A stretch of DNA of 64,000 bases from the NCBI GenBank assembly GCA_018897195.1, contig JAHILH010000001.1, positions 220,565 to 284,564 of the forward strand, read 5' to 3'. The position numbers were made by a program, and so were the translations under genes. The stretch comes from Patescibacteria group bacterium. Its GTDB lineage: Bacteria; Patescibacteriota; Patescibacteriia; Patescibacteriales; UBA12075. The notes under the pieces were generated by a model. That model did no database searches, was not told the origin of the DNA, and saw only the letters and a list, made by a program, of their open reading frames with translations. This document shows positions 2,411 to 54,179 of this stretch, in pieces; the stretch's first letter is position 1; each line of letters starts with the position of its first letter.

Positions 2411-2564
2411 AGATATTAGGGATTTATAGTTTTACACAGCAAACATATATATCCGATTAAGTTTATAATTCTGGTTAAATTATAGCATAATTTATTAAAA
2501 AACAAAAAACTGGGTTATTTAATCCAGTTTAAACATGATAAATTTAAGAAAAACGTAATTTATT

Positions 2565-2828
2565 TTATGGGCAGGTATAATATTCGATAACTTGTTGGAC
2601 ATACACTTCACACCCTCCAATAAAAGACGGTGAATTTCCACCACAGGATGTTGCTTCATTTTTTTTCGCCCACTCATACCCCGCGAAGTGCCCTGTTCCA
2701 TCCCTATATGGATTTTTTGGATAGTAGCATACCGTGCAATTACCTTCTTCACAATAAGTTATATCCTTCGTCTTTGAGCATCCTGCGAGCATTGTGACCA
2801 AAATAATTATTATAAAAAAATTTTTCAT
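2565..2828 (-). CDS. Small cysteine-rich lipoprotein, unknown function
   Basis: The track ORF is 2565..2879. The likely true start is MKNFF at 2828, because 2841-2874 is a perfect hairpin. Lipobox LAGC after a hydrophobic signal. Eight Cys, with a GYEWAKKN...CGGNSPSFIGGC motif. Confidence 0.6.
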   Translation of the reverse strand: MKNFFIIIILVTMLAGCSKTKDITYCEEGNCTVCYYPKNPYRDGTGHFAGYEWAKKNEATSCGGNSPSFIGGCEVYVQQVIEYYTCP

Positions 2829-2840
2829 AAAATGATTTGC

Positions 2841-2874
2841 ACCGCTAGAGTCTCCCAAATGAGACTCTAGCGGT
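2841..2874. repeat. Perfect 14-bp-stem hairpin (accgctagagtctc / gagactctagcggt, 6-nt loop)
   Basis: Read directly: 2841-2854 pairs perfectly with 2861-2874. It lies 110 nt downstream of the OLD gene stop and 13 nt upstream of the lipoprotein start codon. No clean T-run follows it on the minus strand. Confidence 0.7.
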
Positions 2875-2984
2875 ACCAAAAGGAAGAGAGGTTTTAATAT
2901 TTTAGATTAAGAGACTTTTATGTGTTAAAATTCCAATTTGCGAGATACTTCTGAGGCAAAGATTTGAACCCCTATTACCTGAAA

Positions 2985-4817
2985 TTAGTTGCTTAATTTT
3001 TTTTCAATTTCCTCGAATAATTTTTGGATATTATCATTTGTAGTTTTATCCAATTCAACGTCCGTACCATTTTGGCAACATTCCAGAAAATTCTTAGCAA
3101 GCAAAACTTTATCTTGTTTTGTGGTTTTGACATACTCTGAATTTGCCCCCGTGTAGATATTATTCTCATCACCAAGAACATATTTTTTAAAGTCTGTTGG
3201 CGAAAAAATATCTTCAACACTTCCTGTCTTGCTTATAATTGTGAGGATTACATCTTTTGTTATTAGCCAGTTATTTATAAGATTTTTTTCGCCATCTTTT
3301 TTACCCTTGTCATTGTCATAAAGATAAACAACCTTTCCGCCCCATCCATGTATAATGGTGCCAACAATTGGCATATTTCCGGAGCCACCACCAAAAATAA
3401 AGTTCACACTATTATTTTTAAAAATTTTTTTGAAAGCGTTTAGATAATAAACATCCGAAGGACCTTCAACTACAACGTTGTTTACTTTATCTAGCGCAGA
3501 TATTCCAGCATTTAACTCTAACCCAATAGCCGTTAAAATTGGCGTCAAAGTTTCTTTATCCGCTAAAGCGTGAATTTTATTTTCAATATGTGTTCCTAGT
3601 TCATTGGTGCGGTGGACCAATCGTACCCTGTTCAACTTCTCAGCTTCCAATAAATATGGGGAATGTGTGGAAAAAATTAACTGAACCTCTTGTGCAGAAG
3701 CTTCAAGTTTGCCTAAAATATCTTCTTGCGCCTTGGCGTGTAAAAATAATCCTGGCTCGTCAATTAAAATAATATTTGGTACGTTTTCATTTGCCCTAGC
3801 TGAAACTTTTATATAAAATGCAAGATGCCATTGTCGCCCCTTACTTCGCAGAGTTGGCTCATAAGGGTAGCCATCCTCCTTTATCCAAAAGTAGAGATTT
3901 TCTGAATCCCAAGTGATGCTTAAATTTGAAATATCCTGCGTCCAAAATTTCTCGAAATCATTATTAAGCTTAATGTTTATGTCATCTTTGTGTTTTTCTT
4001 TTACTCTTGCGTCAGCACCCTTTATTGTGGTTATTTTTAAATCGCTAATAATTGACAAATCTTTAATCCATTCGCTACTCTCTAATTCTGTAAATGGAAT
4101 TTTGTTTGGAAATATATCTTCAAATGAATTAAACAGAATAAAATTTGGTATATATTTTTTTAACTCTTCTAAAAAATTTATTTCGTAGGACAAATTTTTC
4201 TCAAGATCATTTATCTCTGTTTCTATTTCTGTCAGTAGTTCTAAAAAATTATCGCGGTCATTTTCGTCAATATGAGATATGTTTGGCGCAGCGGCCTCCT
4301 TGAAGCTAATAAAGAGTGTTTTTTCGTTAGTAAAATTTAAAAATTCAAAATCAAACAAATCACCACCTAGTGCCTCATAGCCCAAGCGGATTGTTTTTAT
4401 CTTGCTCCATTTATCCATTATTGTTTTTTTAGTTTTCTCTATTTCTTCGTGGCTAAAAATTTCTTTTTGCGAGGTGCATTGACCAAAAGAATAGTTATCT
4501 GGGAAAGTTTTTATTAATTCAATTTCAACATCACTTGCAACCTTGAGCGGATTTTTTATTTCCTGAAGAATTTCATTGATGTCATTTTTTTCTATTATAA
4601 AAGAGATTGAAATTTCTGGCGTGCTGTCTGGAGATTTTATTGGTTTCGCAGATTCTCTTATTTTATTATTTGTGTCAAAATCCTCTAATGCTTCAAGAAT
4701 AGTCGTTTTACCAGATTCATTTTTTCCTGCGAGAATAGTAATCGTATCTGTTAAGTAACAATCACCGCTATCAGTAATGGACTTGAAATTTTTAATTCTA
4801 AATTTTTTTAACATCAT
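2985..4817 (-). CDS. OLD-family ATP-dependent nuclease (ABC-type ATPase plus C-terminal Toprim), stand-alone class-1-like
   Basis: 610 aa. N-terminal FRIKNFKSI...GKNESGKTT Walker A, a long coiled-coil insertion, ILIDEPGLFLH Walker B and FSTHSP H-loop. C-terminal Toprim with VVVEGPSD (Glu) and YDNDKGKKD (DxD). No adjacent helicase. Confidence 0.8.
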   Translation of the reverse strand: MMLKKFRIKNFKSITDSGDCYLTDTITILAGKNESGKTTILEALEDFDTNNKIRESAKPIKSPDSTPEISISFIIEKNDINEILQEIKNPLKVASDVEIELIKTFPDNYSFGQCTSQKEIFSHEEIEKTKKTIMDKWSKIKTIRLGYEALGGDLFDFEFLNFTNEKTLFISFKEAAAPNISHIDENDRDNFLELLTEIETEINDLEKNLSYEINFLEELKKYIPNFILFNSFEDIFPNKIPFTELESSEWIKDLSIISDLKITTIKGADARVKEKHKDDINIKLNNDFEKFWTQDISNLSITWDSENLYFWIKEDGYPYEPTLRSKGRQWHLAFYIKVSARANENVPNIILIDEPGLFLHAKAQEDILGKLEASAQEVQLIFSTHSPYLLEAEKLNRVRLVHRTNELGTHIENKIHALADKETLTPILTAIGLELNAGISALDKVNNVVVEGPSDVYYLNAFKKIFKNNSVNFIFGGGSGNMPIVGTIIHGWGGKVVYLYDNDKGKKDGEKNLINNWLITKDVILTIISKTGSVEDIFSPTDFKKYVLGDENNIYTGANSEYVKTTKQDKVLLAKNFLECCQNGTDVELDKTTNDNIQKLFEEIEKKLSN

Positions 4818-4995
4818 AGAGCTTGTGTTAATTTTTTTATAATTAAGTAAAAAAACGGGTCATATCCAATTGTTTATAAATAGTGAAATTATAACAATAG
4901 TATATATTAATAACTTTACATTAGCAATAAAATTACCGTTATGCAAGAAATGGTGGCAAAAATTGTAAAAATGCCAATTTTCGGATAAGCGAAAA

Positions 4996-5029
4996 CAAAA
5001 AAAATAGAGACACATTACTGCGTCTCTAT
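4996..5029 (-). terminator. Rho-independent terminator after the sigma4/HARE-HTH gene
   Basis: On the minus strand, stem atagagac/gtctctat (5004-5011 / 5022-5029) is followed by a T8 run (A-run 4996-5004 on plus). Confidence 0.75.
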
Positions 5030-5047
5030 TTCTATATAAAATGTATA

Positions 5048-6343
5048 TTACTTCTTCAAAGCGTAACCGTTATCAACTCTTTCAAACTTATCTCGATTCA
5101 TCAAAGCTAGAATAATTGTAGCCTTTTTGACGATTCTTTTCTCCAGAACTCTATCAATAATCTCATCACGGGTCAAAGGTGATTCTTTTTCAAGAACTTC
5201 TTCAATCACGTCTATAACATTTCCTTTCTTAAATCCCCAATCTTTCAGTCCGTACAAGCCACGGCCTACTAAAACGTATTTCTTATCCAATATCAATTCA
5301 TTATGAACTGTCGCTGCATTTGCTGACTTAAAATCAAATTTAATTTCATTGATAATATCGGCAATCTTAGAAAAATGGATTGGTTCTTTATAATTTTTCA
5401 AAACTAAGTAAATCTTATCATTGATAGTCTTTGGCTTAATTTCTCTCCAGTTGTGAACACCCCAATGACCAAATTCATTTTGGGCAATTTTTCGAGATGA
5501 TCTCAAAACTGAATATAAAACTTTGTTGTTGTTAATTATGTCATGTGACTCTTTAAAAAACCTAGACTTCAGAACCTTGGCAGTATTCAAACTGTTTTCC
5601 CTTTTCAATTTTTCTTCGTGTTCTTTAAATTTCTCTAAGCTTTTTGTTAAGTCAATCAAATCATCAGTATTGTGTACCTTTTCAGATTCAGCAATCTTGT
5701 TGTGAATTTCTTCAGCTAATTCCTCAAGATAATTAATCTTTTGGTATTTTAATTTGTATAATTCTTTGAAATGTTTGGAATTCAAAACTTCCTCAAACTC
5801 TTGGTGTAGTAATTTGGTAATCAAGAAATTGATATAGTTCTTGTGAATTTCTTCATCAGCAATATCAAGATTGATAGATGATAATGAATAACCCACTAAA
5901 ACCTCCATCAAAAACTCTTTTTCCATCATACCACCATGTTCCTCTAACAATTGGAAAATGATTTTTTTCAAACTGGAAATATAATTATCCAAGTTTTTTA
6001 AACTCTGCAATCTTTTGATACTAGATGTTTCGATCTGTCTAATTCTCTCACGAGTTAAATTATGAACAGTACCGATCTTTTCTAGAGTTTCTTTTTCGGC
6101 ATTACGAAGACCGTAACGTCGCAACAACACATCCCTCTCCCTTTCAGAAAGTTCTTTGAACAGATTGTTGATAATCTCAATTGTATCTAGATTGTCGATA
6201 ACCTCAGCTTTTTGCTTGTCGATTATTTGATCTAGGATAGATAATCCTTCCATATATTTTTGCATTCTCAAGGCACGGGGAGCTTGCAAAGTTAAATAAA
6301 TAAAATAAAAAATTTCAAAATGTAAGAGTTGACTTTTAAACAA
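5048..6343 (-). CDS. Sigma-70 region-4 domain protein with coiled-coil linker and C-terminal HARE-HTH / winged-helix modules
   Basis: RDVLLRRYGL...[29 protein letters not shown] is sigma region 4. C-terminal HFSKIADIINE...YVLVGRGLYGLKDWG resembles the RNAP delta (RpoE) N-terminal HARE-HTH. The first ~26 codons look non-coding, so the likely start is at 6265 (MQKYMEG) or 6253. Confidence 0.65.
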   Translation of the reverse strand: MFKSQLLHFEIFYFIYLTLQAPRALRMQKYMEGLSILDQIIDKQKAEVIDNLDTIEIINNLFKELSERERDVLLRRYGLRNAEKETLEKIGTVHNLTRERIRQIETSSIKRLQSLKNLDNYISSLKKIIFQLLEEHGGMMEKEFLMEVLVGYSLSSINLDIADEEIHKNYINFLITKLLHQEFEEVLNSKHFKELYKLKYQKINYLEELAEEIHNKIAESEKVHNTDDLIDLTKSLEKFKEHEEKLKRENSLNTAKVLKSRFFKESHDIINNNKVLYSVLRSSRKIAQNEFGHWGVHNWREIKPKTINDKIYLVLKNYKEPIHFSKIADIINEIKFDFKSANAATVHNELILDKKYVLVGRGLYGLKDWGFKKGNVIDVIEEVLEKESPLTRDEIIDRVLEKRIVKKATIILALMNRDKFERVDNGYALKK

Positions 6344-7410: not shown

Positions 7411-7581
7411 CGTCATCCCCGCGAAGGCGGGGATCCAGGTACCTAGTATCTTATTTTCAGTATAAGGATAATTAAAATTTAAAATGTATTTATTATTATC
7501 AATATTTTTATTAAGACGAGTTTCTATAGTTATGTACCCAAGGTCAGTGGCGCCTGGATCCCCGCCTTCGCGGGGATGACG
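7411..7581. mobile_element. MITE-like non-coding element, copy 1 (171 bp, 29-bp perfect terminal inverted repeats)
   Basis: cgtcatccccgcgaaggcggggatccagg (7411-7439) is the exact reverse complement of 7553-7581. Each arm holds a local hairpin ccccgc-gaag-gcgggg. It is homologous along its whole length to 43989-44160. Confidence 0.75.
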
Positions 7582-7590
7582 CCATTGGTG

Positions 7591-8142
7591 TCATTTTCTA
7601 AAACTGAACTCACAGCCACAATATGTTTGTCTGTATAAATTTAATTCCTTGGTAAGCTGGCATGATTTTTTAAAACCATCACCCTTTTTAAAATCTTCCT
7701 CTAAATATTTAATGCCGTATTTATTAGCCAACTCTAAACCTATACGATTGATGCGCTCAGCGTCTTTGTGTGGACTAGTGGTTAGTGTTGTCCCAAAATA
7801 ATCAAAGCCCAACTCTTTTGCCTTTTGTGCTACCGCCTCTAGACGATCATGGTAACAAACGGTACAGCGCTTCCCCTTCTCTGGCTCTTTTTCTAATCCC
7901 TTTACCATTTCCAACCATGTTGTATGATCATAATCAGCGATAATCATTTCATATTTATATTTTTCCGCAATTCGCTTCGCCTCCTCTAGGCGTTTGTCAT
8001 ATTCGGCGCTTGGCCAAATATTTGGATTGTAAAAATATAAAACAATTTGCGCAAAATCATTTTTCAAAACGTCAATTATGTAGGCACCGCAGCCCACACA
8101 GCAAATCTGCATTAATATTCTAGGCTTTTCTGGTTCGGGCAT
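7591..8142 (-). CDS. queH: Epoxyqueuosine reductase QueH (DUF208)
   Basis: 183 aa. N-terminal ICCVGCGAY cysteine motif and C-terminal YRQTYCGCEFS motif, both typical of QueH. Confidence 0.8.
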   Translation of the reverse strand: MPEPEKPRILMQICCVGCGAYIIDVLKNDFAQIVLYFYNPNIWPSAEYDKRLEEAKRIAEKYKYEMIIADYDHTTWLEMVKGLEKEPEKGKRCTVCYHDRLEAVAQKAKELGFDYFGTTLTTSPHKDAERINRIGLELANKYGIKYLEEDFKKGDGFKKSCQLTKELNLYRQTYCGCEFSFRK

Positions 8143-8473
8143 AAAAATAAATTACAAAGAATAAAGAACCGGTGGCCCCGGCGTAAAAATCATATAAAGA
8201 AACTGACCTTGTGGGTAAAAATGATTGCACGACTTCACCAAGCGCGGCATATAAAAAACCTAGCGCGATGCTGATAAAATAAATGACGCGGTTTTTATAT
8301 TCATCTATGAACGCATAAATTAATAAAAAAGAAAAAACACCAAACATTAGAAAGTGCGCTATCTTGTCGATTCCGATGTAATTATCAACAATGTCGCTCG
8401 TAATCGGCGCCATTGGTATTGTTAATAATAAAAAGACGAAAATCGTCCATATGATAAGGAGGTGTTTCTTCAT
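8120..8473 (-). CDS. VanZ-like membrane protein
   Basis: 117 aa with 4 TM segments and a DKIAHFLMFGVFSFL motif. Overlaps the queH start by 23 nt. Confidence 0.6.
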   Translation of the reverse strand: MKKHLLIIWTIFVFLLLTIPMAPITSDIVDNYIGIDKIAHFLMFGVFSFLLIYAFIDEYKNRVIYFISIALGFLYAALGEVVQSFLPTRSVSLYDFYAGATGSLFFVIYFYARTRKA

Positions 8474-9504
8474 AAAGAATTTTTAATAACTTTCTTATCA
8501 ATATATCGAAAAAATAAAACTAATGACAACATGAATAATACCAGAAAACCAATTGTCAGAACTTTGCCCAGACTTTGCAAAAAGAGTGCGCTTATTCCAA
8601 ACATGGTTGAAATTAAATAATAAAACAAAACAGTTTTGACTGGTGATAGACCTAAGTCTATCAGGCGAAAGTGCAAATGTTTTCGGTCGGCAAATTTAAA
8701 AGGATTTTTACCTTCGCGTAAGCGTCGAATAATTATCCAGAGAACATCCATAATCGGGATGCCCATCACTAATAAAGCAATGGCTATTTTGCCACCAGAG
8801 ATGATTGCCAAAACTCCCAACGCGTATCCAAGAAATAAGGAAGCCCCTTCGCCCAGAAAGATCTTCGCTGGATGCCAATTCAAAAGTAAAAAACCAAAAC
8901 TAGCCGCCGATAAAATTAAAGATGCGAAGCCGATGTCCGGTTGGTAGTATTTTGTCGTCATCGTAAAGAGGAAAATAATAAACGCGCCAATGCCCACCAC
9001 GCCTGAAACTAAACCATCAACACCATCCAAAAGCTTGGTGGTGTACATCATGCCCATTAACCAAATGAAAAGAAAAATATTGGAAAGTAATTTATTGAAA
9101 TATAAATAACCACCAAAGGGATTACTCATTTTACTAATCTCAATACCGCCAAGCAGAACTAAAATAATGGCCAGAACAGGAAAGATAAATTGCGTACCCG
9201 CCTTCATGCGATATTTGTCATCAAGAAAGCCACCAATCATTAGAATAATCCCACCAGCAAAAAAACCTAACCAATGATGAATATTTAGATTGCCGGCCAA
9301 AATCTTATCTTGATTCAAGAATAACATCATAAAGAAAACCAAAAAAATCCCCAAGCCCCCCATAAGTGGTACGGGGTTGGGATGTTTTTTCCGATCCTCA
9401 TCTGGCTTATCAACAAAATTAAATTTCAGGGCAATTTTCCTGATCATTAAAACTGTAATAAAAGACAAAAAAGTGGTAATAATAAAGTAAAAAATATACT
9501 GCAT
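8470..9504 (-). CDS. Polyprenyl-phosphate N-acetylhexosamine-1-phosphate transferase (glycosyltransferase family 4, WecA/MraY family)
   Basis: 344 aa, polytopic. Has the DKPDEDRKKHPNPVPLMGGLGIF motif typical of WecA/TagO-type enzymes. Confidence 0.8.
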   Translation of the reverse strand: MQYIFYFIITTFLSFITVLMIRKIALKFNFVDKPDEDRKKHPNPVPLMGGLGIFLVFFMMLFLNQDKILAGNLNIHHWLGFFAGGIILMIGGFLDDKYRMKAGTQFIFPVLAIILVLLGGIEISKMSNPFGGYLYFNKLLSNIFLFIWLMGMMYTTKLLDGVDGLVSGVVGIGAFIIFLFTMTTKYYQPDIGFASLILSAASFGFLLLNWHPAKIFLGEGASLFLGYALGVLAIISGGKIAIALLVMGIPIMDVLWIIIRRLREGKNPFKFADRKHLHFRLIDLGLSPVKTVLFYYLISTMFGISALFLQSLGKVLTIGFLVLFMLSLVLFFRYIDKKVIKNSL

Positions 9505-9525
9505 TTGTTTTTATAAACTCATTTT

Positions 9526-12270
9526 TTATAAGGCCACGCCCTTTTCAACTTCAATCTTAGCAGATTCATCCAAAACTACAACATCTCGCCTTTTAAGTTC
9601 TCCGGCGAGGATTTTATTGGCAATTGCATCCTCGACTCTTTGCTGTATAACACGACGCAATGGACGAGCGCCAAACTTCGGGTCATAACCCTCTTGGGCG
9701 AGTTTCATGACGCCACCTTGTTGCACGCGAAAGCCAATTCCCTTTTCATGCAGCATTGATTCAATTTGTTTTAACATAATATGAGCAATCTGTACTATAT
9801 TTTGCATGCTAAGTGGTTCAAAAACAATCACGCCGTCAAAACGATTGATAAATTCTGGACGCATAACCTTATTTAGATGTTCATCAATTAAGACTCTTCT
9901 AATCTCTTCAATGTCGATGCCGTTAAAAATTGAATCTTGGATATAGGACGCGCCGGCATTAGAGGTGGCAATAATAATACTGTTGGTAAAATCAATTGTG
10001 CGACCCTGTCCATCAGTTAAACGACCATCATCTAGTACTTGTAAAAATAAATTCAAAATATCAGGATGCGCTTTTTCCAATTCGTCTAAAAGAATTAGAG
10101 AGAATGGTAATTTGCGCACTTTTTCCGTGAGGTAGCCGTTGACACCGTCAGTGTTGCCAATCATTTTATCCACTGAATCAGGATGTTGGTATTCGCTCAT
10201 GTCAATTCTAATCATGTACGCCTCATCACCAAAATAAACATCGGCAATTGTTTTGGCTAACTCAGTCTTGCCTACGCCCGTCGGTCCCAGGAATAAGAAA
10301 TTAGCAATCGGCCTTTTATTTTCGCGTAGTTCGGTGCGGGCACGACGTAAACTAGCTGACACCTTTTCAATTGCCTCATTTTGACCAATCATTCGTTCGT
10401 GCATTTTTTCTTCTAGGTGTAATAATTCTTTACCTTCACTGATAGTGATTTTGGTTAATGGAATTTTGGTTATTTCCGATACGGTGCGGGCCACATCATT
10501 TTCCACAATTTTTGTTATGCCCTCCCTAACTTGCCCAGTGTTAACCGCGGTCATATTAAGAATATTAATCGCCTTTTCTGGTAAATAGCTATCATGAATA
10601 TAGCGCTGAGATAGACTAATTGCTTTTTCAATAGCACCATAAGAAAAATAGACCTTATTATGAGACTCAATGGCACCAATTTTACTTTCGACAATTTGAA
10701 TTGCCTGATCACCTTCCGGTTCTTCGATAATAATTTTCTTCATTGCGCGACCCAGTGTCTTGCGTTCAATGTACTTGGTATAATTGTCACTTCCAGCCGT
10801 AGCTAAACAGTAAATATTGCGTCTTTCAATTTCATTGGCCAAAACTTCTGACAAATCCAAGCTGCCACCTTCGCCACTACTAATTCCAATCAGGTGTTCT
10901 ATGTCATAAACACATAAAACGATATTGCCTGAACTAATTACCTCATCAAGGATTGACAACATTCTCCCCTCGGCCTGCGCTGGCGTTGCCCCACTGATAA
11001 TTCGCGAAGCATCGATCTCAACCAGGCGCATGTCACGCATAAACGATGGCACATCTTCACGCACCATCCGCTCAGCCACACCTCCGACAATGGTTTTCTT
11101 ACCCACGCCGGTGGCACCGACTAAAATAACACCGTTATTACCGCCTTCAAAAGTTGAAAAAATATTATCCAATTCCTCTTCACGCGCAACGCAAAATTCC
11201 AAACGACCATACGCGGAGACCAGTGTTAAGTCATAGCCAAAGCTATCTAAAATAGGCGTTGCAATTGCGGTGTAGGATCGATTCATACTCGTCTTAGGCT
11301 TTAGATGAGCCTTCTTTTGATAGATATTATAATTTTCAATCATTTTTTCATTAATATGAAACCATAATACTACATTAAAAATCTTCTCAGCTGTAATCTC
11401 AAACTCCAAAAACAATTCCTTTAAATACTCGTCCTTACTTATCAATGCTGTTAAAAGATTGCTGACAGAAACATGTTTTTGTCTAAATGAAATCGCCTCC
11501 AAGTAAGCACTAATCAAAACTTCTTTTGTTTCATTGGATAAATCACAGGATTGCGCATCTGATTCTATTTTGAGTAAATAGTTTTTTATTTTTTCAATCA
11601 AGTTGTTAAGGTTTGTGTCTAGTCGTGATAAAATTGCCACAACTTCATTATCACTCAGCGCAGCAAAAAATAAATGCACGGGATTAACCTCGGCATTGCC
11701 AAGTTTGATTGCCAGTAAAAAAGCATCTTCAATTACCTTAAAAATCTTTTCATCAAAACCGTGTGAGACCTCAACTCTAATTTCGCTTCCAGATTTTACC
11801 AACTCAGCCCAATTGTCTGGTAATCGTCTAGTATTAGTTCGGTCTTCGTATTCGGTTTTTTCAATACGTCTACGCTTACGTGATTCCTCGCTAACTCGAA
11901 AAAAGATAAACATCCCAGCAATAACACCAATCCAGAAAATCAAAATCAAGGGGTGTTGCTTATTCCAAAAGAAATAATCAGTAAGAGTTTGTGTATTTAG
12001 TGAAACAAAATAAAGCCAGATTGCTAAAGTTGCGACTCCAGTCAAAAAAACAACATATGCAATCAAGTTTAGGAAGAAATTTAATTTACGTCGCGCAAAA
12101 TCTAATTGGATAACTGCTTTACTTAGTCCGAGTTTCCAATAATAAAATTTACCAAAACTAAAAAATCCCAAGCCCATGCCCATACAACTTGAGCATGCGA
12201 AGCCGAGTTTATTCTTGCCCGAGCCATTGCAAACGGGACAGACGATAAATTGTTCTTCTTTATTGGGCAT
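9526..12270 (-). CDS. Clp/Hsp100-family AAA+ ATPase with N-terminal zinc ribbon and transmembrane anchor
   Basis: 914 aa. CPVCNGSG...CSSCMG zinc ribbon, about 3 hydrophobic helices, Clp_N-like repeats, NBD1 (GATGVGKK; Walker B reads VYDIEH) and NBD2 (GPTGVGKTELAK; LLDELEKAH; RPEFINR). Confidence 0.8.
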   Translation of the reverse strand: MPNKEEQFIVCPVCNGSGKNKLGFACSSCMGMGLGFFSFGKFYYWKLGLSKAVIQLDFARRKLNFFLNLIAYVVFLTGVATLAIWLYFVSLNTQTLTDYFFWNKQHPLILIFWIGVIAGMFIFFRVSEESRKRRRIEKTEYEDRTNTRRLPDNWAELVKSGSEIRVEVSHGFDEKIFKVIEDAFLLAIKLGNAEVNPVHLFFAALSDNEVVAILSRLDTNLNNLIEKIKNYLLKIESDAQSCDLSNETKEVLISAYLEAISFRQKHVSVSNLLTALISKDEYLKELFLEFEITAEKIFNVVLWFHINEKMIENYNIYQKKAHLKPKTSMNRSYTAIATPILDSFGYDLTLVSAYGRLEFCVAREEELDNIFSTFEGGNNGVILVGATGVGKKTIVGGVAERMVREDVPSFMRDMRLVEIDASRIISGATPAQAEGRMLSILDEVISSGNIVLCVYDIEHLIGISSGEGGSLDLSEVLANEIERRNIYCLATAGSDNYTKYIERKTLGRAMKKIIIEEPEGDQAIQIVESKIGAIESHNKVYFSYGAIEKAISLSQRYIHDSYLPEKAINILNMTAVNTGQVREGITKIVENDVARTVSEITKIPLTKITISEGKELLHLEEKMHERMIGQNEAIEKVSASLRRARTELRENKRPIANFLFLGPTGVGKTELAKTIADVYFGDEAYMIRIDMSEYQHPDSVDKMIGNTDGVNGYLTEKVRKLPFSLILLDELEKAHPDILNLFLQVLDDGRLTDGQGRTIDFTNSIIIATSNAGASYIQDSIFNGIDIEEIRRVLIDEHLNKVMRPEFINRFDGVIVFEPLSMQNIVQIAHIMLKQIESMLHEKGIGFRVQQGGVMKLAQEGYDPKFGARPLRRVIQQRVEDAIANKILAGELKRRDVVVLDESAKIEVEKGVAL

Positions 12271-36455: not shown

Positions 36456-37898
36456 TTAGTAATCTCTTAGCTTTTGAATACCATCATGCTTTTGAACTTT
36501 TTCCAAAGCCTTGGCTTCGATCTGACGGATACGTTCTCTGGTAACGTCGAACTCTCGACCGACTTCTTCCAGGGTATGTGCCACGCCGTCGGTTAGACCG
36601 AAACGCATTTCGATAATCTTTTGCTCTCTTGGGGAGAGTTGTTGAATTACCTCTTTTACATAATCTTTCAAAAGTTGCAAAGCAGCCGAACGATCTGGAG
36701 TTACTGAGCGAACGTCCTCGATGAAGTTTTCCAAAGTGGAATCTTCGTCGTCGTCGCCGACGGATGTTTCTAGGGAAATTGTATCTTGGGAAATCTTGAT
36801 GATGTGACGAACCTTGTCGATGTCTTCGTGCATTTCGGCGGAAATTTCTTCTGGCAATGGTTCACGTCCTAGGTCTTGGATTAATTGTCTTTCAATCTGG
36901 GTAAACTTATTAATTGTTTCAACCATGTGCACTGGAATACGAATAGTTCGAGATTGATCAGCCAGGGCACGCGTAATCGCTTGACGAATCCACCAAGTCG
37001 CGTAAGTTGAGAACTTGTAACCCTTGCGATAATCAAATTTCTCAACCGCTCTAAACAAACCAATATTACCTTCTTGAATCAAATCTAATAAACTCAAGCC
37101 CTTGGCGCCGGTAAACTTCTTGGCAATCGAAACTACCAAACGAAGATTGGCTTGAATTAATTTGTGCTCCGCTCTACGGTCACCACGTTCTTTTCTCTTC
37201 GCCAATTCAACCTCATCCTCAGTCTTTAATAACGGTACACGACCAATTTCCTTCAAATACATTTGAATTGAGTCAGAGCTCAACTTGGACAAATCAGCGA
37301 TATCGCGACCAAGTACATTGCTACCCTCAAAGACACGTTCTTTTTTCTTGGGCGCATCACCATCTTTCTTGGCTACAAAATTATCCGTATCCAAAAAGCT
37401 TGTCTCCAAAATCTTGCCAGTATCTTCAATAATACGTACGCCATTTCTTTGTAATTTCTCTAGAAACAATTCATAATCATAAATATATTCTTCAACCTCG
37501 GGAAAAACATAAAGCAGCTCGGTCTCGGTTACAAAATCACGAGAACGACCTTTGTTGATCAAGCTATTTACCCTCGCCTCCTCAGGTGGCATTACTTCCT
37601 TTTTTGGTTCTTCAACTTTTGGTACTGGTTTTGGAGCTGGCTTCGGAGCCGGAGCCTCTTTCTCTTTTTTAGCAGACGATTTATGCTCAACGTGTTTCTT
37701 AGCAGGCGTTGTTTTTTTCTCAACCGCTTTTTTTTGTGTTACCACAATTTTTTTAACAACATGATTCTTTACTGGTGCTTTTTTTGGCAATTCTTTCTTA
37801 TCTACCTTTTGCTGCTCCTTTCCCTTACCAACAAGCTTAGCTGCGGTTTTGGCAGTTTTCTTGATAATATCTTTCATTGTTGTTTTTAGTTTAGGCAT
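36456..37898 (-). CDS. rpoD: Primary RNA polymerase sigma factor RpoD with Lys/Pro-rich N-terminal extension
   Basis: 480 aa with [40 protein letters not shown] (region 2), then regions 3 and 4 ([23 protein letters not shown]). Confidence 0.95.
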
Positions 37899-47531: not shown

Positions 47532-49979
47532 CTACAGCTTCACGCCTGAATAAGCAATCGCTCTAACAAGATTCCAATCCATCATGGAAGATGGGTTATA
47601 TTTATAAATTTTTTGAAATTTTTTCAACGCTACTTTTTCGTAGCTCATGTTTCGATGACGCACTCGTAAGCCGTAGGCAATCAAGTTCAAGGCAGCCTGG
47701 TCCTTCTTGTTGGCAATCACCGCCTTACGTTTATATATCTTTACAAAAGACTGTCGCGCATTATCCAGTGCAACTTTACTTACCGCCTCCGGCAATTCGC
47801 CATTCGTCATATTAAAGACATCAAACCATTCTGATTTAGTCACCGGAAACTTACCATAAACCTGCCAATAGGTTTCAATCACGCTCATTCTCTCGCCAGC
47901 TCCCACATTACTCACCCACTCCGAGCCAGTGCGAATAAAACTCGTAATTAAATCCTGGGAGAATTTATTAATATTTTTGCCGGCAAAAAGTTTTATAATT
48001 TTCTTATCAGGCGTGCTTGTGCTATTACTAACAAAAGTTATTCCCAAAATCTTATCACTCCGCAACACAAGATCTTTTTCCAGATCAAGATCGCCCTCAC
48101 CGCCAACTTCACCTTTCTCAATATTCAAACCCTTAACTTCTTCCTGAATAATCAGTGGGATAATTACAGGCGGCACAATAAACACCGGTACACTTGAGGG
48201 GGGAATATAACCTGATGATGACGTAATTTTCTTAAGCACAGTGTCTGACACAGCCACACCCTCGTAACCAGCCTCAGTAATTAAATTAAATGTCAAAGTC
48301 AGCGTGCCATCACTCAGCTTAGAAACATCGAGACCGGAGACAACACTGGTGGCCGTCGCCACAAGACCATTTCCACTAATCGCCGGGGTCTTAACATTAC
48401 CATCATCAACTGTGTAGTAGTAAGTCGCTCCAAGCTCAACGGCCACATAGGTAAAAGAGAGGCTCTTTTGATTACTACGATCAATTAAAGATTGGTCAAT
48501 ATCAGCGCTGTAGCCGAATGGAGTTTTTGTATCAATCCTAAATAACGATGATGACGCAAATAGCGCATCGTTGCCCGCAATATCAGTAAGAACAGAGTCT
48601 AATACGACGTAATAATCTTCGTCAATTCCATTATCGATACCATTGCCATCGACTCCATAATATCTGAAATTCATAACATAGGAACTATTATTATCAATCC
48701 AACCAAAATTCAAAAGCTCCCAATCCTGACTGTCACTAAATTCGCCTATTTGGCTATCATTATCTACAAACATTTCTTCACCAAAATCAACCGTTACCGT
48801 TTGGAGTAGATCACCTCTATGAATAAGATAATTATCAATAGAAATCGCAGCTAGTGGCGCTTTTGTATCAATATTTAGGTAGCCTATCGTGCTTGTGCTT
48901 TCTGGGTTACCTACCAAATCGATTGCCCCGGTACTTTTTATAACCACCCCAATCTGCTCCTCATCCACATCTACCAATCTAAACGATTGCATCCAAACAT
49001 CATTAGCATTATCATCTGTGCCCCAATGTCCATTAGATGTTGTTGAAATAAAACTAGTTGTCGGACCAAAAGAAATAACTGGATCAACACCAGTATCCAT
49101 TATCTCATTATAAGTAACCGTAACATCAAAAGTAGGAATCTGTTCCGTAACTGTGCCGTTTGTTACATTAGCATGCCCAACTGGATTTGTCGTATCCTTA
49201 ATTATCTCCGAAGTTGTGGATATCTTAGTGTTTCCATATTCATCCTCAGCCCGAACATAAAATGTAAACGCATTAATGCCACTAGTTGCCGTATCTGGAA
49301 GATTAACAAATCCGATAATATCACCAATTGTGGTCACACCACTTTCGCAAGTAGACCAATCATTTCCATTAATTCTGCACTCGATATTAACGACGTTTAA
49401 ATCACTAGCATGCGGATCAAATTCTATCACGCGGTTAGCGTTGACAACATCTCCAGACGCTGGTGCAGAAATGCTTATATCTGGGCCAATGGTATCAATA
49501 AATAAATAAAGAATATCACTTTGCGCTCCATCTACCCACACTGGGTCAATTTCCGTCCCCTCGTTATGCCAGATTAAATAAGTCAACGATGATGTTCCAT
49601 CGGTTAGTTGTCCATGATTTAATGTAAAATCATATTGTTTGGCAGTATCTTCAGTATTTAAAGTTATCGCCTGATGCCCAGCGAAAGTGCTTTCATCACA
49701 GCCTACATCTATATCACAAATTTGTCCTTCATCGCTATACAATTCAAGAACATCCCCCGCACTACTACTAGCCAAAGTAACAGACACTAAAAATCCAGCC
49801 TTCTCTTCCAGATAATTCACGGCAAAATCATCATAAAAATCACCAACAACAGTTGGCGCATTTGAACTTTCTGCTAAAACTACTAAATTATTAAACGGTA
49901 ACGCTAATAGAGAAATAACTACTAAAATAAAAATCACGCTTTGGGATTTCTTAAAAAATTTTTTCATACACGAATACAA
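47532..49979 (-). CDS. Large surface protein with repeated Ig-like modules, a hydrophobic Pro-rich segment and a ~200-aa C-terminal domain
   Basis: The likely start is MKKFF at 49967, with a signal peptide. Recurrent DT(x)xP module boundaries (IDTIGPD, KDTTNPV, IDTKAPL, IDTKTPF). Hydrophobic segment VPVFIVPPVIIPLII. Confidence 0.55.
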   Translation of the reverse strand: MYSCMKKFFKKSQSVIFILVVISLLALPFNNLVVLAESSNAPTVVGDFYDDFAVNYLEEKAGFLVSVTLASSSAGDVLELYSDEGQICDIDVGCDESTFAGHQAITLNTEDTAKQYDFTLNHGQLTDGTSSLTYLIWHNEGTEIDPVWVDGAQSDILYLFIDTIGPDISISAPASGDVVNANRVIEFDPHASDLNVVNIECRINGNDWSTCESGVTTIGDIIGFVNLPDTATSGINAFTFYVRAEDEYGNTKISTTSEIIKDTTNPVGHANVTNGTVTEQIPTFDVTVTYNEIMDTGVDPVISFGPTTSFISTTSNGHWGTDDNANDVWMQSFRLVDVDEEQIGVVIKSTGAIDLVGNPESTSTIGYLNIDTKAPLAAISIDNYLIHRGDLLQTVTVDFGEEMFVDNDSQIGEFSDSQDWELLNFGWIDNNSSYVMNFRYYGVDGNGIDNGIDEDYYVVLDSVLTDIAGNDALFASSSLFRIDTKTPFGYSADIDQSLIDRSNQKSLSFTYVAVELGATYYYTVDDGNVKTPAISGNGLVATATSVVSGLDVSKLSDGTLTLTFNLITEAGYEGVAVSDTVLKKITSSSGYIPPSSVPVFIVPPVIIPLIIQEEVKGLNIEKGEVGGEGDLDLEKDLVLRSDKILGITFVSNSTSTPDKKIIKLFAGKNINKFSQDLITSFIRTGSEWVSNVGAGERMSVIETYWQVYGKFPVTKSEWFDVFNMTNGELPEAVSKVALDNARQSFVKIYKRKAVIANKKDQAALNLIAYGLRVRHRNMSYEKVALKKFQKIYKYNPSSMMDWNLVRAIAYSGVKL

Positions 49980-52712: not shown

Positions 52713-54179
52713 TTATTTAAAAATATTTTTTATTCGACTAATAATTGACCAGCCTGTCAAGTCAATCCGCATTTCATTTATTGTAATGCCATCATCAACA
52801 TCATCATATCCTTTTAGACCAGGAATTGAGACCAAGAAGCTATATTTTCCTTTTTCACGATAAGCATAACGTAAATCCACGGATACATCCACCTCTTTCC
52901 AGTCGTCATTCGCAGTCGGCGACTGATAGCGCGCCAAGACGTATTCAATACCATCATTTTTTACATCAACATTGGTGTCCATTTTTTTAATACTCGGATT
53001 AAGCAAGGCGTCAGCTGTAAAGCTAAACACACCATTGCCGTTCAAATAAATTCCGTCTTTTTCCAAAACAATTTTAGTTGACTTATCTACGCTCAACTCC
53101 TTGATCACAGCCGCTTCAAATTGTTTATAGGTTTCCGTCAGTGGCAATTCATTTTCACCCACCTTGATTATTTGTAAGGAACTAGGGTAAGTTGTTTTAC
53201 TTTGAATTTTTTTACTATCAGTAAAAATGGTCAAATTTCTTTTGCCGGCCTCGTGCAGTCTAATTCCATTTATAAAAGCAAGCTTATTTTGTTTTGTGCT
53301 AATTTTCTTAGTCACAATATCATCGTTAACTTTCACTTCAATTTTATAAACCCCAGTGCCCAGGTCCGGCATCTCAAAACTCATTTTTTGCACCGCATTT
53401 TCTTTACCATCGTCGGTACTATTCCCATCATCATTTATCTGGCGAGTTTCAATTAAGTCATTATCGTAAAAAAGTCGCACCTCAATCGGATCTTGATCCC
53501 TGTTTTTATTCAGATCAATAAATTCAAAATTATAATCCAAGTTTTCATTATCAATATAAGTATAAAACTGATACGCCCCACGCATCGCCTTGTCAATCAC
53601 TAAATTTCCAGGCATTGCCTTATAGTCATTGAGTAAATACTCAGTTTTCAAATCATAATTGAAAACCGCCACCTTGCTTAAATCAATTTTTCCTGGATCA
53701 TCCAGCGCAGACAAAAATTCATTCACGCTCGCAAATTTCTTTTCTTTTTGCAATAACTGCAAATCACCGTCATTAATTCTATCCCACACTAAGGCAATTG
53801 AGTCGATTAATTTATTCTCTACTGGTTGTAGATTATAACGCCAAGAAACCTTGTCCACCAATGGACCAACCTCAATAATCGGATTCATTAAATTATCTGT
53901 GCCTATATTCTTATACCTCAAATGCAAAACCGCCGACTCGAAACTCCGCGGAGTGTGCAAAGTAAAATAAACCGGGTCGCCCAGAATGGTATTCGGATAT
54001 TGAATATTATTCACCCGCTCCTTCGGCGTCAATGCGCCAATAAACTCATCGGTCTTATCAAAACGATAAATATAGGAAATCCTTCCAAAAGGCACAATCC
54101 CCAAATACAAAAGCACGGCAATGACAGCCGTCAATAAAGACCAGAGAAGTATTCGGATTTTTAGTTTGAATTTATCCAT
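52713..54179 (-). CDS. N-terminally membrane-anchored hypothetical protein (488 aa)
   Basis: A single N-terminal TM helix (ILLWSLLTAVIAVLLYLGIV) and a large extracytoplasmic beta-rich region. No family recognised. Confidence 0.5.
   Translation of the reverse strand: MDKFKLKIRILLWSLLTAVIAVLLYLGIVPFGRISYIYRFDKTDEFIGALTPKERVNNIQYPNTILGDPVYFTLHTPRSFESAVLHLRYKNIGTDNLMNPIIEVGPLVDKVSWRYNLQPVENKLIDSIALVWDRINDGDLQLLQKEKKFASVNEFLSALDDPGKIDLSKVAVFNYDLKTEYLLNDYKAMPGNLVIDKAMRGAYQFYTYIDNENLDYNFEFIDLNKNRDQDPIEVRLFYDNDLIETRQINDDGNSTDDGKENAVQKMSFEMPDLGTGVYKIEVKVNDDIVTKKISTKQNKLAFINGIRLHEAGKRNLTIFTDSKKIQSKTTYPSSLQIIKVGENELPLTETYKQFEAAVIKELSVDKSTKIVLEKDGIYLNGNGVFSFTADALLNPSIKKMDTNVDVKNDGIEYVLARYQSPTANDDWKEVDVSVDLRYAYREKGKYSFLVSIPGLKGYDDVDDGITINEMRIDLTGWSIISRIKNIFK

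Follow-up and report, generated by a model that had tools for sequence, protein, structure and literature searches.

A solitary OLD-family nuclease gene in a Patescibacteria genome, probably acquired horizontally and orphaned from a clade linked to restriction-modification operons

The DNA considered here is a stretch of 64,000 nucleotides (the window) from contig JAHILH010000001.1 of a Patescibacteria group bacterium (assembly GCA_018897195.1). On its minus strand, the open reading frame (ORF) at 2985–4817 encodes what is, as judged from its sequence, an OLD-family protein consisting of an ABC-type ATPase and a Toprim domain, with a complete set of catalytic residues. We consider it very probable that this gene is a genuine OLD gene, that it was acquired horizontally, and that it is an orphan of a clade that otherwise travels mostly with type II restriction-modification (R-M) genes. 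With less assurance, we lean toward the view that its predicted product has an autonomous anti-phage function.

The assignment to the OLD family draws on several profiles. The gene starts at one of two adjacent ATG codons, at 4817 (610 aa) or 4814 (609 aa), and public copies use 4814. Pfam places AAA_15 (4e-20) and AAA_21 (1e-13) across residues 1–390, and the top PADLOC model is Old (3.8e-27), with AriA (1.5e-21), PtuA (7e-20), AriAB (2.9e-19), AbiLi, and GajA all scoring lower. An exhaustive protein search returned 499 cluster representatives at E ≤ 1e-30, mostly full length and about 600 aa long, and 79 of these make up the family profile and alignment. The best solved-structure match of this profile is the Class 1 OLD protein of T. 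scotoductus (TsOLD; 6p74, 9e-22), and GajA is next (1.7e-10). The alignment with 6p74 is unbroken from Walker B through the Toprim E-G to the DxD motif, such that E450 and D500/D502 match the VEG and D-E-D of TsOLD; the alignment with GajA covers the C-terminal half of the ATPase and the Toprim domain. As a single-sequence query, the window protein reaches only E = 1e-6. In 609-residue numbering, the ATPase motifs comprise Walker A K36, the signature R323-S324-G326, Walker B D352-E353, and the H-loop residue H384, and the Toprim motifs comprise E450 in VVVEGPSD and D500-N-D502, along with a conserved K569. All of these residues are invariant or nearly so in the 79-member alignment, and the window protein has every one.

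The AlphaFold2 (AF2) model contains long helices at residues 122–145, 161–181, and 184–221 (predicted local distance difference test score, pLDDT, 85–96) between Walker A and the half that carries the signature and Walker B. As modeled, the region from about 122 to 221 is a helical insertion of the dimerization type within the ATPase. A Foldseek search with this model gives retron-Eco8 OLD, GajA, and TsOLD as its top matches, a result that supports the OLD/ABC-SMC fold class and does not discriminate among OLD classes. The profile searches also give Rad50, RecF, and SMC matches, reflecting the shared Toprim/ABC architecture. The original prediction, which was made from the letters of the stretch and their ORFs, had proposed a full OLD architecture of ATPase, helical insertion, and Toprim domain, and Pfam, PADLOC, the 6p74 profile match, and the motif alignment all bear it out.

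To place the window copy among its relatives, 16 loci were compared first and then 80 from metagenomes, with neighboring genes clustered and annotated. A scan of a genome collection with a single-sequence query gave 9 loci, and the statistics given here come from the metagenome scan, which used an alignment query. Full-length homologs with 65–81% identity occur in Parcubacteria, Saccharibacteria, Moranbacteria, Jacksonbacteria, Sungbacteria, Shapirobacteria, and Elusimicrobia, as well as on a 1.9-Mb contig. The G+C content (GC) of the OLD gene at these loci is 0.32–0.39, compared with 0.35–0.55 in the host flanks. Counting distinct informative loci whose OLD protein is at least 59% identical to the window protein, the OLD gene is preceded on the same strand by type II R-M genes at about 43 of 50. 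The end of the R-M gene lies −4 to +46 nt from the OLD start, mostly −4 to +10 nt. These operons are usually headed by a gene for a C-protein-like helix-turn-helix (HTH) protein of 64–70 aa, and OLD is normally the last gene; gene order does vary, as in the methyltransferase-OLD-HNH arrangement of loci L012 and L034, with OLD still within the operon. The restriction endonucleases in the cassettes are of the NgoPII, MvaI/BcnI, TdeIII, HinP1I, Tsp45I, HindIII, MutH-like, DpnI, HNH, and GmrSD_N-HNH types, joined by four further REBASE-type enzymes, and at least 10 unrelated nuclease families are represented in all. The accompanying methylases are of the N6/N4, Dam/D12, EcoRI, and C5 types.

Some of these cassettes are bracketed by long inverted repeats. 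In L003 the repeats are 228 nt long and 99% identical (5185–5412 and 9853–10080), and in L013, where the cassette reads HTH-NgoPII-M.C5-OLD, they are 193 nt long and 100% identical (5595–5787 and 9851–10043). The right arm of the repeat begins about 25 nt past the OLD stop codon. The repeat is GC-rich and recurs, with 76–98% identity to the copy in L029, at loci with different R-M cargo; it matches no Rfam family. A recurrent family of ~200-aa proteins beside OLD was rejected as a set of spurious ORFs, about 80–200 aa long, that arise from this conserved noncoding repeat. Large serine recombinases and tRNA genes adjoin cassettes. An identical cassette has one set of flanks in L003 and another in L004, suggesting that the unit is mobile or invertible.

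The window copy is not the only clade member free of R-M genes; L011, L049/L051, L062, L063, and L068 are as well. More distant members mostly have no R-M link, both at 42–51% identity and at 32–36% identity on Lactococcus and Bacillus plasmids, where the homologs are stand-alone. A scan of viral contigs gave no OLD relatives, and annotated phage genomes gave two weak partial matches only; on these grounds a phage origin of the window gene is unsupported.

Three other arrangements were observed upstream of clade members. In L025 (506–1579), L027, L026, L008, and L029, a Dam/D12-type methyltransferase gene shares 4 nt with the start of OLD. No recognizable restriction endonuclease lies between the two in these five loci, and OLD may be the sole nuclease of what would be a two-gene methylase-OLD arrangement. 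In L010 (6441–7964), a 436-aa glycosyltransferase-like protein (EryCIII-like_C / UDPGT) stands between the C-protein HTH and OLD; it takes the position that the methyltransferase and endonuclease have in other cassettes and might be a different DNA modification enzyme. In L055 (2873–4948), the gene directly 5′ of OLD encodes a 691-aa protein that fuses an N6/N4 DNA methylase to an HhH-GPD base-excision glycosylase domain.

In a neighbor-joining tree, the window protein is nested deep inside the R-M-linked clade, and thus the solitary state is derived: the gene is a derived orphan and not a minimal ancestral system. None of the features of the cassettes (C-protein HTH, methyltransferase, and endonuclease genes upstream, inverted repeats, serine recombinase) is present at the window locus. 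A tblastn search with all neighbor proteins of the other OLD loci found no cassette-gene relative in the 64-kb window, no recombinase remnant was found there, and blastn showed the cassette inverted repeat to be absent from the window, with no inverted repeats at the OLD locus. Ten of the largest other ORFs of the window, scanned with Pfam, are housekeeping genes or have no match. In blastn comparisons with the other OLD loci, similarity spans positions 4818 to about 2995 and does not extend beyond the ORF.

The gene is under purifying selection. The 1,830-nt ORF is uninterrupted, the nearest relatives are about 22% divergent, and the pairwise ratio of nonsynonymous to synonymous divergence (dN/dS) is 0.06–0.09. 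Of 175 clade-invariant positions, 171 are kept, and the four changes (S38T, Y287F, L488I, and K564T) are conservative, with none at a catalytic residue. The identical locus is also present in two more independently assembled contigs, L001 (ENA) and L002 (Logan).

Comparison with related genomes shows how the gene is placed. The features of the locus are as follows.

2985–4817, minus strand: OLD-family nuclease gene, supported by Pfam, PADLOC, profile, motif, AF2, and Foldseek evidence
2510–4991, no strand: insert relative to the empty-site relative L017, about 2.48 kb, holding OLD, the 3′ hairpin, and the lipoprotein gene
4992–5002, minus strand: left junction motif TTTTTTGTTTT, 11 nt, at the terminator T-tail
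2499–2509, minus strand: right junction motif TTTTTTGTTTT, 11 nt, where homology to the empty site restarts
5000–5033, minus strand: intrinsic terminator of the sigma4/HARE-HTH gene, 15-bp stem and T-run, −18.9 kcal/mol, z = −5.3
4818–4989, minus strand: insert-specific region upstream of OLD, 172 nt, with sigma-70-like sites
2839–2876, minus strand: perfect 16-bp hairpin 3′ of OLD, −31.3 kcal/mol, z = −7.3
5048–6343, minus strand: sigma70-region-4 gene with two HARE-HTH stretches (sigma4/HARE-HTH); Sigma70_r4 6.7e-12, HARE-HTH 1.3e-7
2565–2828, minus strand: Cys-rich lipoprotein gene, 87 aa, lipobox MKNFF...LAGC, seven Cys; within ORF 2565–2879

The gene order around OLD is MurB, sigma4/HARE-HTH, OLD, lipoprotein, and GAPDH, and a NuoF-like gene is also among the neighbors. 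In L017, whose sigma4/HARE-HTH protein is 90% identical, the order is MurB, sigma4/HARE-HTH, GAPDH, and 146 nt separate sigma4/HARE-HTH from GAPDH. Because this relative has the sigma4/HARE-HTH gene directly beside GAPDH, OLD and the lipoprotein gene are an insert. Homology between the window and L017 ends at about 4990, just past the T-tail of the terminator, and restarts at 2509. The occurrence of TTTTTTGTTTT at both junctions fits a target duplication or microhomology weakly. The GC of the insert is 0.325, compared with 0.370 for the window. The closest relative, L019 (93% in the sigma4/HARE-HTH protein), has the first ~30 nt of the insert (4989–4958) and then a different gene in the same slot (2501–3163 of L019), the first 221 residues of which match the N terminus of Avs4 (PADLOC 7.9e-33), an antiviral STAND NTPase type; the contig ends inside this gene. 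Because this 93% relative carries Avs4 there, the slot 3′ of sigma4/HARE-HTH and upstream of GAPDH is a variable, defense-enriched hotspot. In L018, a 72% relative, the same slot (7449–10885) holds a DUF8128 protein and a TrwB/TraG-like/HerA-like ATPase (PADLOC mad8 2.8e-15, HerA 4.7e-9), possibly part of a conjugative or defense element. The empty site of L017 also makes the locus island-like and OLD no core gene of the lineage, in keeping with the original prediction.

Hairpins, with stability expressed as z-scores against shuffled controls, bound OLD on both sides. The upstream terminator is kept in L017 and in L019. The downstream hairpin has no clean T-run, occurs once only in the window, before the lipoprotein ATG, and is a probable terminator or mRNA-stabilizing stem. 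The 172 nt upstream of OLD have no counterpart at other OLD loci and contain two sigma-70-like sites, TTGCTA-17-TATACT at 4927–4899 and TTAACA-18-AAAAAT at 4831–4802; we presume that OLD's own promoter lies in this region. A 51-aa ORF between the genes (4860–5015) extends across the insert edge into the terminator; having no support, it was discarded as spurious. Examination of the neighboring genes found no UvrD-like helicase, reverse transcriptase (RT), or AriB-like gene around OLD, and an Rfam scan of the window found no retron RNA, the only family recovered being one tRNA-Asn at 35.7 kb.

The upstream neighbor is a vertically inherited core gene of the lineage that flanks the hotspot and lies outside the OLD unit. 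Its start is probably at about 6265, given that homologs begin near residue 27 and the annotated TTG is ~26 codons too far upstream. More than 2,400 homologs of this protein (about 400 aa) were recovered, with identities that grade smoothly (93, 90, 72, 66...) through Falkowbacteria and Parcubacteria and that span 58–93% among the 120 best matches. Its synteny on the MurB side is kept with or without OLD in the relatives compared. Because a separate, normal RpoD is already encoded in the window, at 36456–37898 beside DnaG, the sigma4/HARE-HTH protein is an extra, lineage-typical transcription-type protein. The sigma4 part matches MzaA of the MZA system (PADLOC 3.5e-8, NCBIfam 1.1e-15), and an MzaA identity was rejected, as the match covers generic sigma region 4 only. 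The HARE-HTH part of the protein resembles the RNA polymerase delta subunit (TIGR04567, 1.9e-6).

On the other side, the most probable start of the lipoprotein is the ATG at 2828, just past the hairpin. A comparison with 5.8 billion proteins gave only 3 relatives, in unrelated contexts, and none adjoins OLD or GAPDH. The family shares the core NPY..G.GH.AGYEWA..N...SC.G.S.SF..GCEE, as in L022 (118–390) and L023 (1175–1525); one relative is a lipoprotein like that of the window, and another has a different N terminus. Elsewhere in the window, Pfam has nothing at E ≤ 1e-5 for either of two large minus-strand ORFs, at 47532–49979 (815 aa) and 52713–54179 (488 aa).

Much of the local picture drawn by the original prediction holds: three minus-strand ORFs at 2565–2879, 2985–4817, and 5048–6343; an OLD gene with no GajB, AriB, or RT among its neighbors, set in its own hairpin-bounded unit; an upstream neighbor with Sigma70_r4 and HARE-HTH modules, the latter in two stretches; and a small, Cys-rich lipoprotein downstream. 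Its suggestion that these neighbors might be partners of OLD fails. The upstream gene belongs to the lineage and keeps its place without OLD, and the lipoprotein family is minute and scattered. The synteny of the three genes occurs only in L001 and L002, which have an identical OLD and identical neighbors; neither neighbor was found at any of the ~90 other OLD loci, and DNA similarity to all of those loci stops exactly at the ORF ends.

A published scheme sorts OLD proteins by context: those encoded by single genes are Class 1, those accompanied by GajB are Class 2, those of retrons are Class 3, and those of PARIS are Class 4 (PMC10568477, PMC12392090). Class 1 has been described as single genes not near other defense genes (PMC10568477). 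By context, the window locus is Class 1. It resembles P2 Old, TsOLD (6P74), VcOLD of V. cholerae, and YbjD/OldB of E. coli in standing isolated, without helicase, RT, or AriB, and differs in that its sequence kinship to them is distant and that it is 610 aa long compared with 528 aa for TsOLD. Because a single-gene OLD is Class 1 by the published definition, the window gene is not non-canonical. The "minimal or non-canonical" defense locus of the original prediction thus survives insofar as OLD is alone in an island-like slot, and not insofar as the gene is a derived orphan of an R-M-linked clade and an ordinary Class 1 member. The class definition sits awkwardly with the clade as a whole: the window locus itself is not associated with other defense genes, yet the closest relatives of its OLD are embedded in R-M operons.

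The remaining classes are poorer fits. Gabija GajA (Class 2) has the same two-domain architecture and is found by the profile and by Foldseek, but the profile match is weaker than that to TsOLD, and downstream of the window gene are the 87-aa lipoprotein gene and then GAPDH, with no GajB. No GajB/UvrD-like helicase was recognized among the annotated neighbor clusters of the other OLD loci either. The retron OLD proteins (Class 3) differ in that the window gene has no neighboring RT and the window no Rfam retron RNA. The ATPase half of the window protein matches the models of AriA from PARIS (Class 4) and of PtuA from Septu and retrons, and PARIS, as a second-line system tied to restriction, is similar in concept. 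In those systems, though, the matches are to the ATPase only, whereas the window protein is a fused ATPase-Toprim protein without AriB, PtuB/HNH, or RT; the PADLOC Old model outscores AriAB (3.8e-27 versus 2.9e-19), and there is no AriB-like ORF.

OLD genes beside R-M genes are already known, and the adjacency is not unprecedented. Schiltz et al. (2019, Table S3) listed, as "species-specific operons," type III and type II R-M systems with an OLD gene behind them; OLD there directly follows the methyltransferase and restriction genes, an order also found among the window gene's relatives. Those cases are scattered through Firmicutes and Proteobacteria and were listed without analysis; here, one tight clade (60–81% identity) is found with at least 10 type II R-M families, a C-protein gene, and, in some cases, inverted repeats. 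In a literature search that was not exhaustive, we found no description of one conserved OLD clade with many type II R-M cassettes, nor of an R-M-OLD unit bounded by inverted repeats.

We propose that the ancestor of the window gene would have been the last, cotranscribed gene of a C-protein-controlled type II R-M cassette on an inverted-repeat-bounded, serine-recombinase-associated mobile unit. The gene was most probably gained horizontally, in a variable defense slot that starts at the T-tail of the sigma4/HARE-HTH terminator; its ORF alone would have arrived or survived there and acquired its own upstream region, and a strong hairpin now follows it. It would now most likely serve as an autonomous Class 1-type defense nuclease, with its expression, activity, anti-phage role, and target all being predictions. 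Single-gene OLD proteins are able to defend, as is the case for P2 Old, VcOLD, and YbjD (PMC10568477, PMC12392090, PMC13261556). The protein is predicted to have metal-dependent nuclease activity and ATPase activity. By analogy with the family (PMC10568477, PMC7049728, PMC12392090, PMC13261556), the protein may form a homodimer through its helical insertion, and the ATPase may gate a two-metal Toprim site that nicks invading DNA or degrades it 5′–3′. As reported for P2 Old, tRNA could be another substrate, and the trigger would be a phage cue.

Several observations weigh against parts of this proposal. The Pfam model OLD-like_TOPRIM is below threshold on the window protein (E = 0.012, 16.6 bits versus a cutoff of 23.2), the AF2 model is of moderate quality overall (pLDDT 68.5), Foldseek TM-scores to OLD structures are low (0.23–0.28), and identity in the Foldseek alignment to 6p74 is ~13%. 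The promoter is a consensus match, and such sites are as frequent in shuffled sequence, with no excess in the real one. TTTTTTGTTTT is T-rich, and its repetition could be chance or microhomology. The synonymous divergence is saturated and the dN/dS values are approximate. The window branch also carries 2–4 times more unique amino acid substitutions than its R-M-linked sisters (Tajima P 8e-3 to 1e-19), which may reflect relaxed or redirected selection after partner loss or a longer separate history. Finally, the clade nearly always travels with R-M genes, and the protein may need a partner that is absent at the window locus.

This last point leads to the alternatives. OLD could act as an R-M accessory in trans, with an R-M system elsewhere in the ~0.57-Mb genome doing the cutting and OLD degrading the fragments or backing up an R-M system that has been inhibited, in which case the locus would be half a system. 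Such a role is suggested by the operon linkage at about 43 of 50 informative loci, where reshuffled orders (L012, L034) keep OLD inside, and by the diversity of partners: with at least 10 unrelated families, cooperation would be generic, responding to DNA ends or to restriction failure, and could work in trans. Guard logic of this kind has precedents in PARIS, for anti-restriction, and in P2 Old, for RecBCD inhibition (PMC11464382, PMC13261556). We still consider it unlikely, given that no relative of the OLD-adjoining R-M genes lies within the window, that ten of its largest other ORFs point to housekeeping or to no Pfam family, that the other R-M-free clade members listed above exist, and that the distant plasmid homologs stand alone. 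It is also conceivable, if a good step less probable, that the window gene is a nonfunctional or decaying remnant of a mobile R-M-OLD cassette that illegitimate recombination stranded at this site and that has so far escaped degradation. The loss of every partner and of the inverted repeats, and the long terminal branch with its excess of unique substitutions, would suit a decaying orphan, but the intact 1,830-nt ORF with a dN/dS of 0.06–0.09 at ~22% divergence, the retention of all catalytic residues and of 171 of 175 clade-invariant positions, and the identical locus in two independently assembled contigs would not.

We regard it as very improbable that the protein does housekeeping work, be it in DNA repair, in replication, or in the cell cycle, as has been proposed for the archaeal OLD Cran1. 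The Toprim/ABC architecture is common to repair proteins, as the Rad50, RecF, and SMC matches attest, and an essential archaeal OLD has been cited (PMC13261556). Against this, the window gene is missing from close relatives, is patchy in distribution, horizontally transferred, and foreign in GC; its relatives reside on mobile cassettes with R-M genes, and a sister genome has Avs4 in the same slot. We give hardly any credence to a three-gene, modification-sensing defense system composed of OLD, the sigma4/HARE-HTH protein, and the lipoprotein. The genes are adjacent and on one strand, some restriction enzymes contain HARE-HTH domains, and the sigma4 part is MzaA-like by score, but that match is restricted to generic sigma region 4, and a terminator lies between OLD and the sigma4/HARE-HTH gene, whose upstream synteny is the same in relatives that lack OLD and whose homologs grade smoothly. 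About 90 other OLD loci have neither neighbor, and the relatives of the lipoprotein are found in unrelated contexts.

Regardless of which function the orphan has, the clade to which it belongs raises a broader possibility, which we offer tentatively. The clade could be an undescribed context class, in which OLD is a generic "third component" that is translationally coupled 3′ of type II R-M operons under C-protein control, whose many specificities are unrelated, and that is mobilized as an inverted-repeat-bounded cassette among the candidate phyla radiation (CPR); the window copy would then be this module uncoupled from its operon and kept under selection. Because the R-M partners are so diverse, any cooperation with OLD must be generic. 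The third component might finish restricted DNA, standing in as an exonuclease for RecBCD where genomes are reduced, or it might be a guard that fires once restriction is blocked.

Overall, the window locus adds a CPR member to the single-gene (Class 1) OLD nucleases, a small group that is poorly understood. It occupies a defense hotspot in a streamlined Parcubacteria lineage, the slot being empty, filled with OLD, or filled with Avs4 in related genomes. The more novel material is the R-M-coupled OLD cassettes, which are found in related genomes outside the window. That one tight OLD clade is joined to type II R-M systems of at least 10 unrelated kinds leads to the testable hypothesis that stand-alone OLD proteins cooperate generically with restriction, for which nature provides matched controls: loci that pair OLD with a full R-M system, loci that pair it with a methylase only, and loci that have OLD by itself. 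If OLD is indeed a third component of these R-M systems, the window copy would represent a natural experiment in which the module proved separable and was selectively kept alone.

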